From: Promethearchaeum syntrophicum
GTDB taxonomy: Archaea; Asgardarchaeota; Lokiarchaeia; Sigyniarchaeales; Promethearchaeaceae
Assembly: GCF_008000775.2 (NCBI RefSeq)
Contig: NZ_CP042905.2
Span: 3,570,001-3,602,000 of the forward strand
Direction: 5' to 3'
Length of the DNA stretch: 32,000 nucleotides
Made by a program: the position numbers and the translations under genes. Shown here piece by piece: positions 23,988 through 24,715 of the stretch. A model generated the notes under the pieces. The model was not told the DNA's origin. It saw only the letters and a list, made by a program, of their open reading frames with translations, and searched no databases. Each line of letters begins with the position of its first letter. Positions within the stretch are counted from its first letter, which is position 1.

Positions 23988-24404
23988 ATGAAATCTTTTC
24001 GCAAAGAATTATGGTTTAATGCTCCAAGTAGAAGAGCGTTCATTAATATTACTCCTCAAATTGAACAATGTCTTAAAGAAAGTGAAATTAAAGAAGGAAT
24101 TGTGCTCGTAAATGCCATGCACATAACTGCATCTGTGTTTATAAATGATGATGAATCGGGATTGCATTATGATTATGAAGTTTGGCTTGAAAAATTAGCC
24201 CCCCACGAACCTGTTTCTTATTACAAGCATAACGTTGGCGAAGATAATGCGGACGCTCATATGAAACGTCAAATTATGGGACGCGAAGTAGTAGTAGCAA
24301 TAACCAATGGAAAATTAGATTTTGGTCCTTGGGAGCAAATTTTTTATGGTGAATTTGATGGAAGAAGAAGGAAAAGAGTTCTGGTCAAAATCATAGGAGA
24401 TTAA
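23988..24404 (+). CDS. YjbQ/UPF0047 family protein (secondary thiamine-phosphate synthase-type)
   Basis: 138 aa. The blocks [39 protein letters not shown]...[44 protein letters not shown] match UPF0047. Confidence 0.85.
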
Positions 24405-24715
24405 CAGCAACTATTATCCCCACAACCAAAGTTGTCTTTCGATTTATTTTTACTGTAGGTCTTAGCATCCCATAAACAACCGCACCCTTTCACTTCTTTC
24501 ATAAATATTGCTTGAACCGGACAATTTCTTTTACACGCACTACATTCCGTACACAAATCGGGATGAGTGATTTCATATTTATCTTTGGAATTTCTTTCTG
24601 GTAAGCCAAATGGGCAAACTTCTTCGCATATACCACAGGAAATGCATAAACTTGCATCTATGTATATCTTTACATCCATATCTATTTTTTTATTCATCAA
24701 ATTTGTAAATTCCAT
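24401..24715 (-). CDS. HgcB-like 2x[4Fe-4S] ferredoxin with a Cys-rich C-terminal tail ending in vicinal Cys-Cys
   Basis: It has two CX2CX2CX3CP motifs ([12 protein letters not shown] and [12 protein letters not shown]), then GCGC directly after the second cluster, then a tail ending ...[13 protein letters not shown] (CC codons at 24404-24409). The size (104 aa), the position immediately 3' of the HgcA-like gene (26-nt gap) and the terminal CC all match HgcB. Confidence 0.75.

Follow-up and report, generated by a model that had tools for sequence, protein, structure and literature searches.

Whether a small ferredoxin encoded directly downstream of an HgcA-like gene is an HgcB, and on which substrate such a pair acts, is the question raised by a locus of the Asgard archaeon Promethearchaeum syntrophicum. 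The locus was analyzed within a stretch of 32,000 nucleotides (nt) of contig NZ_CP042905.2 (positions 3,570,001 to 3,602,000), hereafter called the window. There, the gene of a ferredoxin of 104 amino acids (aa) follows the gene of a fusion protein consisting of a methyltransferase dependent on S-adenosylmethionine (SAM) and an HgcA-like part, and both are located in an arsenic resistance (ars) operon. An earlier note on this DNA had ascribed HgcB hallmarks to the ferredoxin and had considered its cysteine-rich tail suited to As(III). In its core, i.e. the HgcB hallmarks, the co-variation with the HgcA-like gene and a plausible arsenic link, this interpretation was right; as a whole it is partly supported, the function being inferred. 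We are confident that the fusion protein has its dedicated, HgcB-like partner in this ferredoxin, and we propose tentatively that the pair acts on arsenite.

HgcAB and its essential cysteines were defined by Parks, Smith, Cooper, Zheng and co-authors. In HgcB of Pseudodesulfovibrio mercurii ND132, the clusters involve C20/23/26/30 and C50/53/56/60. Cys73, about 12 residues past the second motif, shows strict conservation and is essential; activity further depends on the presence of C94 or C95, and up to four additional C-terminal cysteines are known from HgcB homologues (Cooper et al. 2020, PMC7305189). The roles of C73, C94, and C95 were restated by Zheng et al. 2024 (PMC11588087). That the native function of HgcAB is linked to arsenic has so far been proposed only on the basis of regulation in one bacterium: canonical hgcAB in ND132 is ArsR-regulated and responsive to arsenic and S-adenosylhomocysteine (SAH) (Gionfriddo et al.). 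The genes arsR, acr3, arsC, and arsM were reported near canonical hgcAB (McDaniel et al. 2020; Gionfriddo et al. 2022/23). Rare fused HgcAB proteins were described by Podar et al. 2015, who found no Hg methylation by Pyrococcus furiosus. Lin et al. 2023 placed some Thor- and Lokiarchaeota sequences in a fused-HgcAB subtree after trimming the first 327 poorly aligned columns; these sequences may belong to the family described here. A 2025 survey, which identified hgcA by N(V/I)WCA(A/G) and hgcB by CX2CX2CX3C, listed Asgardarchaeota among the putative methylators, and its Asgard calls would correspond to the present family. Full-text searches of literature outside subscription journals gave no description of Asgard ars operons that encode an HgcA-like protein fused to a methyltransferase together with an HgcB-like partner.

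The ferredoxin and its relation to HgcB

The two [4Fe-4S] motifs, the cysteine after the second cluster, and the C-terminal CC reported previously were all present in the 104-aa open reading frame (ORF), which is located on the minus strand, a detail unstated earlier. Altogether, the protein contains 13 cysteines (positions 24, 27, 30, 34, 55, 58, 61, 65, 78, 80, 98, 103, and 104), corresponding to a cysteine content of 12.5% compared to 0.69% in the window ORFs of at least 150 aa (n = 26). Five extra cysteines fall within the last 27 residues (78–104), and the C-terminus reads GCGDNSCC.

The best NCBIfam match of the ferredoxin was HgcB (NF040864), with residues 17–104 aligned to model positions 9–93 of 93, i.e. 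end to end, at a score of 56.6 bits versus a cut-off of 99. All 45 family members examined (45/45) matched the HgcB model, which gave the best E-value of any model (3.2e-19). For comparison with canonical HgcB, sequences including that of ND132 (DND132_1057) were taken from Supplementary Data 2 of Cooper et al. 2020. In a BLASTP alignment, the window ferredoxin and ND132 HgcB were 40% identical over 68 aa and C78 was paired with Cys73; C78 follows the last cluster cysteine at +13, as does Cys73 with respect to Cys60 in ND132. A profile of 21 canonical HgcB sequences also paired C78 of the window protein with Cys73. Applied to one homologue, the canonical profile introduced a gap of two residues, by which the second cysteine (the C80 position) was paired instead. 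The structural equivalent of Cys73 would thus be C78 or C80, between which the sequence does not decide. The alignment with HgcB proposed in the earlier note put C78 at Cys73 and the terminal CC at C94/C95. In reciprocal searches, the top family members reached 56–70 bits against the canonical profile and canonical HgcB about 50–62 bits against the family profile; against their own family profile, members reached about 100–150 bits.

Because 56.6 bits lie below the curated cut-off, the ferredoxin is termed HgcB-like instead of HgcB: judged by its sequence, it is a sister family of HgcB and not HgcB as curated. The HgcB identity claimed before therefore holds for every sequence hallmark (two motifs, a cysteine at +13, C-terminal cysteines) and for the best NCBIfam match, and fails at the curated cut-off. 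Like HgcB, the protein has about 100 aa, two CX2CX2CX3C(P) motifs and a cysteine 13 residues past the second one, a predicted helix that precedes a disordered, CC-terminated tail, and a gene placed directly after a corrinoid-protein gene. Unlike HgcB, it has a CxC (GCGCLW) in place of a single cysteine (GVGCA), and the segment behind it is basic/polar, whereas that of HgcB is hydrophobic (AAYLVSVWL). It further differs in that its partner carries a fused methyltransferase and another cap helix and in that the gene is located inside an acr3 operon. In the part of the Cooper alignment that was examined, GVGCA occurred 760 times, GTGCA 35 times, and GCGC 22 times (four times as GCGCLW); at least one other GCGC in this part belongs to a canonical sequence ('PGCGCAAYI'). 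At least four or five pairs of the Asgard family sit unrecognised in the paired HgcAB alignment of Cooper et al.

The extent of the family was determined by a homologue search with the ferredoxin in 5.8 billion proteins, which yielded 100 relatives. Those with a taxon name were all from Asgard archaea (Promethearchaeota/Lokiarchaeia, Thor- and Hodarchaeota) except for one labelled Nanopelagicaceae. An alignment of 45 sequences with 49–76% identity to the window ferredoxin contained both cluster motifs, G77-C78-G79-C80, and C103-C104 among its invariant columns. C98 was not among them; a role of this cysteine as a third motif (GCG), which the earlier note had included in its tail pattern, was rejected. 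Across about 135 homologue clusters covering two subfamilies, GCGC[LIV][WY] was found in all but one, and a cysteine pair (CC or CxC) was located at the C-terminus or at most six residues away from it in nearly all. In subfamily 1, GCGC[LI][WY] was present in 98 of 99 homologues, with the first cysteine at +13 from the last cluster cysteine in 96; the end carried CC in 89/99 and CxC in 10/99, zero to six residues from the C-terminus. The more distant subfamily 2 (Thor/Sif) shows the pattern 'GCGC[IV]WN...SCCG', with GCGC in 35/35 clusters and CC at or near the end in most. The number of tail cysteines in subfamily 1 (n = 99) was four in 53 homologues, five in 25, six in 20, and seven in one. 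With four to seven tail cysteines in the family and up to four extra C-terminal cysteines in canonical HgcB (PMC7305189), the view that five thiols exceed a typical HgcB had to be given up. An additional vicinal CC in a variable N-terminal extension (e.g. NSCCSP) was observed in 18/99 homologues (P0009, P0021, P0031, P0039, and others); the window protein lacks it.

As negative control for the tail motif, a profile search was performed against 1.84 billion representatives, and the best 149 matches were inspected. The motif was present in 18 family representatives only; the other 131 ferredoxin or polyferredoxin representatives among these 149 had neither GCGC (0) nor a terminal CC (0). Multi-domain polyferredoxins dominated, and canonical HgcB ranked below the best 150. 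Generic polyferredoxins with similar tails, named in advance as a finding that would speak against the HgcB hallmarks, were thus absent from this set. The conserved cysteine pattern is beyond chance.

The structure of the ferredoxin was predicted poorly by AlphaFold2 (AF2), with a predicted local distance difference test (pLDDT) value of 49.4 and a weak hint of a helix at residues 81–89 followed by a disordered end. Searches of PDB sequences gave only generic ferredoxins, methyltransferases, and corrinoid iron-sulfur protein (CFeSP), and no match covering the tail. Selenocysteine recoding of the tail was considered; the gene ends with TGC TGT TAA, and suggestive truncated homologues were not seen, although without systematic examination. 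With a GC content of 0.34 for the gene and 0.30–0.32 for the neighbouring genes, the locus matches the window (0.30). Signs of a recent transfer were not seen.

The fusion protein and its genomic context in Asgard archaea

The ferredoxin gene adjoins the HgcA-like gene, which itself scores below the HgcA cut-off. In Pfam, the fusion protein matched Methyltransf_25 and CdhD (PF03599), a CFeSP-type corrinoid domain. The NCBIfam matches were HgcAB_like with 176.8 bits (cut-off 285), HgcA with 169.9 bits (275), and the corrinoid protein-associated methyltransferase CpaM with 143.8 bits (180), the latter covering fusion residues 3–208 and CpaM positions 2–213 of 216. BLASTP against ND132 HgcA gave 29% identity over 284 aa, extending through the membrane domain. 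The AF2 model was confident (pLDDT 81.7; predicted template modelling score 0.81) and consists of a Rossmann-type methyltransferase, an alpha/beta domain, and five long C-terminal helices. With Foldseek, the best match in the PDB was 9a0b_A, a deposited HgcAB model (E 1.2e-12), and the other top matches were SAM methyltransferases; no arsenite methyltransferase was among the best 50 matches by description. ArsM as identity of the methyltransferase domain was rejected, as the domain of the window protein has one cysteine and reaches 41–47 bits against ArsM cut-offs of 263–575. A single cysteine in this domain was found in 100/117 homologues.

In its C-terminal 300 aa, the fusion protein resembles HgcA (NF040863) and 9a0b, with the cap-helix cysteine, the PF03599 fold, and the five-helix membrane domain. 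In contrast to HgcA, it has an additional N-terminal SAM methyltransferase of 215 aa and a different cap helix. The HgcA motif N(V/I)WCA(A/G)GK is replaced, with the cysteine kept, by NVWCGARGD in the window and by NVWCAARG in 115 of 120 homologues, so that GINVWC[AG]ARG was found in 120/120 (A in 115, G in 5); canonical NVWCAAGK occurred 792 times in the examined part of the Cooper file. Because of the sub-cut-off HgcB score and the cap helix NVWC(A/G)ARG instead of NVWCAAGK, the pair is regarded as a distinct HgcAB-like clade.

The modules SAM methyltransferase, HgcA-like protein, and ferredoxin are also those of the HgcAB-like fusion (NF043039, Pyrococcus furiosus type) together with CpaM (NF043040). 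From the homology to CpaM, HgcA, and HgcB it follows that the same three modules occur in another fusion pattern: in Asgard archaea, the methyltransferase is joined to the HgcA-like part and the ferredoxin is separate, whereas in the Pyrococcus type a separate methyltransferase accompanies a joined HgcA-like part and ferredoxin. With separate genes and 176.8 bits (fusion protein) and 49.7 bits (ferredoxin) versus a cut-off of 285, the Asgard pair falls outside NF043039, and its methyltransferase domain, which is fused and not stand-alone, falls outside CpaM. In the alignment to the ferredoxin, residue 70 is matched by the last position of the NF043039 profile, which would therefore not cover the cysteine-rich tail kept by the Asgard family. 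The methyltransferase-fused arrangement represents a third architecture within the HgcAB superfamily, apparently occurring throughout the Asgard archaea in association with ars genes.

The region upstream of the ferredoxin gene was assessable in 27 loci (numbered L001 and onwards): the window, three congeneric metagenome-assembled genomes (MAGs), 12 loci obtained via exact-protein look-ups, and 11 via a metagenome scan. A contig scan with the fusion protein gave loci of the same genus only. The HgcA-like part of the fusion was encoded directly upstream on the same strand in 26/27 loci, with gaps of 9–62 nt in the nine loci read, and the upstream ORF was the full fusion with the methyltransferase domain wherever the sequence sufficed. 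The sole family ferredoxin lacking the HgcA-like gene, in L014 (851–1207), is followed by a flavin-reductase-like ORF. For the window, the spacing noted before and its hgcA-hgcB order were confirmed, as the fusion gene ends 26 nt ahead of the ATG. Likewise, in the 26 loci as well as in the pairs from the Cooper alignment, the GCGC...CC tail was indeed always accompanied by a fused methyltransferase and the [AG]ARG cap helix.

In the window, the gene order is acr3, fusion, ferredoxin on the minus strand with arsR divergent, and the three minus-strand genes are presumably co-transcribed. A cysteine-bearing ArsR and an ACR3, both above their cut-offs, mark the locus as an ars operon; the CVC of the window ArsR is what we take to be the classic As(III) site. 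Of the 15 subfamily-1 loci that could be assessed, 11 had acr3 immediately upstream of the fusion gene; with Promethearchaeum counted once, it was 8 of 12. A divergent ArsR gene was located beyond acr3 in every ACR3 locus with enough upstream sequence, and SSPCTAMV was found in 11/11 linked ACR3 proteins. The linked ArsR proteins of subfamily 1 (n = 13, window included) all had either RCVCELE or LCxCxxC. The latter was observed in L007, L011, L013, L016, and L022, in contrast to RCVCELE at the classic helix-3 position in the window, L001–L003, and L006, which suggests that these putative As(III) sites evolved independently. In L010, ArsR and a DUF166 gene were found with no ACR3, and L009, L012, and L024 had no ars gene nearby. 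The DUF166 gene (PF02593; weak match to the DfsP (seleno)protein model) lies between arsR and acr3/fusion in L010 (3536–4279) and L013 (2441–3157). In subfamily 2 (L094, L096, and L097), the fusion protein has 578–583 aa and the cap helix NVWCAARG[IV]HF. L094 and L096 have the co-directional order arsR-fusion-ferredoxin with the ArsR-family gene immediately upstream, which resembles the order arsR-hgcA-hgcB reported for Desulfovibrio; upstream of the fusion in L097 no regulator was found.

Proposed arsenite methylation and competing explanations

As the pair is encoded inside an arsenic resistance operon, it probably handles arsenite rather than mercury. By analogy with HgcAB, the two [4Fe-4S] clusters would pass low-potential electrons to cobalt and thereby hold it as Co(I), and the fused methyltransferase would load the methyl group of SAM onto Co(I). 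The flexible cysteine-rich tail (C78-x-C80 and C103-C104) might then capture a thiophilic substrate and present it to methyl-Co(III). Most likely this substrate would be As(III); once methylated, it would exit the cell, while arsenite that had not reacted would be exported by ACR3. The choice of As(III) is based on the operon context and on the lack of spare cysteines in the methyltransferase domain: with a single cysteine in this domain, substrate thiols should come from elsewhere, e.g. from the ferredoxin tail, whose four invariant thiols would be the obvious metalloid-binding site. Methylcobalamin together with thiols can methylate arsenite non-enzymatically. The fused SAM methyltransferase fits the demonstration that SAM is the methyl donor of HgcAB (Zheng et al. 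2024, PMC11588087), and Cys73 and C94/C95 are required for Hg methylation in ND132 (PMC7305189, PMC11588087). A preference of As(III) for three thiolate ligands was stated for ArsR by Gionfriddo et al.

Similar logic is known from other systems. ars operons with ArsM are likewise ArsR-controlled and combine an arsenite efflux pump with a SAM-dependent methyltransferase; unlike ArsM, the Asgard domain is without the As-binding cysteines, and methyl transfer would run via the corrinoid. CC pairs are also carried by ArsD. At the C-terminus of MerA, a flexible terminal CC binds a soft metal and passes it on to the active site (analogy drawn in PMC7305189). The ferredoxin tail is like those of MerA and ArsD in motif and logic only, as no sequence homology was detected.

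We put the chance that the ferredoxin is the electron-donating, substrate-presenting HgcB-type subunit of an Asgard-specific SAM/corrinoid methyltransferase acting on As(III) at somewhat below even. That the reaction of the pair is As(III) methylation is a tentative assignment by analogy, with more doubt than confidence attached to it. The furthest-reaching version, and a doubtful one, is that the pair is a so far overlooked arsenite methyltransferase which works without ArsM, depends on a corrinoid, and is conserved throughout the Asgard archaea. Several points weigh against arsenite methylation. Methylarsenite is more toxic than arsenite, and therefore methylation is not an obvious detoxification step. 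ACR3 is absent in 4/15 subfamily-1 loci and in all three long-contig subfamily-2 loci, all three NCBIfam matches are below cut-off, and the tail geometry of the ferredoxin model is not usable at its low pLDDT. Furthermore, ND132 with its canonical HgcAB made neither mono- nor dimethylarsenicals during growth in the presence of As(III) or As(V), and its arsenic resistance did not drop significantly when hgcAB was lost (Gionfriddo et al. 2022/23). The ArsR next to hgcAB in this strain also responds to SAH, so that an ArsR neighbour alone does not mean arsenic. Of the earlier suggestion that the tail suits As(III), the conserved ArsR/ACR3 context speaks in favour and the lack of methylarsenicals in ND132 against; As(III) is a candidate substrate.

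The probability left beside As(III) methylation is split between methylation of Hg(II) and an unspecified soft substrate. The pair could be a true but divergent HgcAB that methylates Hg(II). The nearby ArsR/ACR3 genes would then only illustrate that hgcAB, as is known, often lies close to arsenic genes; arsR, acr3, and arsC have been reported as neighbours of canonical hgcAB, too. The cap-helix cysteine, the Cys73 equivalent, and the C-terminal CC are all in place, family members stand in the paired alignment of Cooper et al., and the family would pass the N(V/I)WCA(A/G) and CX2CX2CX3C screen of surveys listing Asgardarchaeota as putative methylators. However, every member tested scored far below the HgcA/HgcB equivalog cut-offs, the cap helix is NVWC[AG]ARG and not NVWCAAGK, and the hard-wired place between acr3 and the operon end in 11/15 loci is tighter than the canonical hgcAB association. 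In addition, the fused-HgcAB clade into which Lin et al. put Asgard sequences has only one tested member (P. furiosus), and this made no methylmercury. Hg(II) methylation by the Asgard pair is thus considered quite improbable.

On the unlikely side, too, is a corrinoid/SAM methyl-transfer or redox system for another substrate (Sb, Se, Te, Bi, a thiol or thioarsenical, or a halomethane), in which SAH or a different ligand would be detected by the ArsR-family regulator and the tail would bind clusters, a cofactor, or a partner. The arsR-fusion-ferredoxin order without ACR3 in subfamily 2, the response of ND132 ArsR2 to SAH, the putative thioarsenicals made by ND132 in place of methylarsenicals, and the metal-efflux gene of the cation diffusion facilitator (CDF) type behind the ferredoxin gene in L006 are in line with it, as is halomethane dehalogenation by Hg methylators, reported in a 2026 preprint. 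On the other hand, ACR3 is at equivalog level with a conserved PCTAMV, the window ArsR has its CVC, and a tail that is predicted to be flexible and has an invariant CxC and CC is typical of proteins handling soft metals and not of cofactor binding (PMC7305189). The assumption of a generic small ferredoxin that adjoins the fusion gene by chance could appeal to the many Fer4 Pfam families and polyferredoxins that match residues 10–75 and to L014 with its missing HgcA-like gene. It is effectively refuted by the adjacency in 26/27 loci, by the invariant tail absent from all 131 other representatives of the best 149 profile matches, and by HgcB as best-scoring model aligned to the very last residue.

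Members of the clade occur in MK-D1 and Lokiarchaeum ossiferum, two Asgard archaea available in culture or enrichment. The telling traits of the clade are the arsR/acr3 operon, its own SAM methyltransferase domain, and a ferredoxin which keeps and adds metal-handling cysteines; together, they provide a concrete, cloneable test of arsenic action by HgcAB-like enzymes. If arsenite methylation holds true, this branch of the HgcAB superfamily, at least, would natively serve the arsenic-linked methylation of soft metal(loid)s, and Asgard 'hgcAB' in metagenome surveys would not be from mercury methylators. The family probably contaminates surveys of mercury methylators; as its members pass the motif filters used there and already stand, unrecognised, in an HgcAB alignment from the literature, the number of Asgard mercury methylators may be overestimated.

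Features, neighbouring genes, and annotation of the loci

The coordinates of the features in the window are compiled in Table 1.

Table 1. Features of the ars locus with the HgcB-like ferredoxin, in window positions
Feature	Positions	Strand	Evidence or remark
HgcB-like 2x[4Fe-4S] ferredoxin, 104 aa, ATG start	24401..24715	minus	ORF, Pfam Fer4 families, NCBIfam NF040864
First CX2CX2CX3C (C24, C27, C30, C34)	24614..24646	minus	invariant in 45-sequence alignment
Second CX2CX2CX3C (C55, C58, C61, C65)	24521..24553	minus	invariant in 45-sequence alignment
GCGC, residues 77-80 (C78, C80)	24476..24487	minus	C80 = family-specific extra Cys
C98 ('GCG' Cys)	24422..24424	minus	variable, no family feature
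Terminal vicinal pair C103-C104	24404..24409	minus	counterpart of HgcB C94/C95
Spacer fusion/ferredoxin, 26 nt (TTCATGATTAAAAAGGAAAGAAGAAA), operon-like	24716..24741	minus	comparable gaps of 9-62 nt in 8 other loci
Fusion protein, 550 aa: CpaM-like SAM methyltransferase, HgcA-like corrinoid-binding, and five-helix membrane domains	24742..26394	minus	Pfam, NCBIfam, BLASTP, AF2, Foldseek
Methyltransferase domain, residues 1-215; SAM motif VGCGPG (26236-26253); one Cys	25750..26394	minus	
Cap-helix motif GINVWCGARG; Cys305 = presumed cobalt ligand	25468..25497	minus	
Transmembrane domain, residues 393-550, about five helices; aligns with HgcA membrane domain	24745..25218	minus	
ACR3 arsenite efflux permease; PCTAMV 27090-27107; 47 nt upstream of fusion	26442..27530	minus	TIGR00832 295.3 bits (cut-off 282.8)
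Divergent arsR/acr3 intergenic region; AT-rich, TATA-like stretches, palindromes	27531..27648	.	palindromes = weak evidence at 30% GC
ArsR/SmtB regulator; CVC (27859-27867) in helix-3 region	27649..28062	plus	HTH_5 57.1 bits, NF033788 74.7 bits (cut-off 55)

A putative second methyltransferase of the locus, a membrane protein of the ICMT/PEMT family, is encoded on the plus strand at 28099–28758, 37 nt downstream of arsR (PF04140 48 bits; NF040696 77.8 bits, below the cut-off of 160). As a component of the system it was rejected, since it was found in Promethearchaeum loci only (window, partly L001). At 22784–23854 on the minus strand, a protein of the Na+/Ca2+-exchanger family (PF01699) is encoded which has an uninterrupted run of 27 Asp/Glu residues, EDEDED...DDDD, between its two membrane halves.

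Further genes were observed behind the ferredoxin gene in other loci. The CDF gene of L006 (Lokiarchaeum ossiferum; 6248–7717; Cation_efflux and ZT_dimer) overlaps the 3′ end of the ferredoxin gene and brings a further metal-efflux function into this operon. A conserved small ORF 's' of 106–142 aa with the CxC motif 'PLN(A/V)C(E/A)C(V/M/E)W' was observed after the ferredoxin gene in 12 Asgard loci (L010 6423–6743, L011 6420–6818, L013 6386–6793, L018 533–958, and eight more loci). Longer versions have N-terminal vicinal cysteine pairs such as NTCCDSSASCCG, and 's' may be a metallochaperone-like fourth component. A second small ORF 't' (113–118 aa, ending in ...GC or ...EC) is located after 's' or the ferredoxin gene, also in 12 loci (L007 6357–6713, L013 6833–7189, L010 6794–7135, and nine more). 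For both 's' and 't', searches of Pfam, NCBIfam, and the PDB gave no match, and both are absent from the window.

Public annotation of the two central proteins is uninformative or wrong. The database copy of the ferredoxin (100% identical, Promethearchaeum syntrophicum MK-D1) is named 'ATP-binding protein' at NCBI, and the fusion protein is found as 'methyltransferase domain-containing protein' or 'acetyl-CoA decarbonylase/synthase complex subunit gamma'. Finally, a convergent yjbQ gene (UPF0047) ends at 24404 and the ferredoxin ORF at 24401, so that the stop codons overlap; this overlap is kept in three Promethearchaeum MAG loci and in no other locus.

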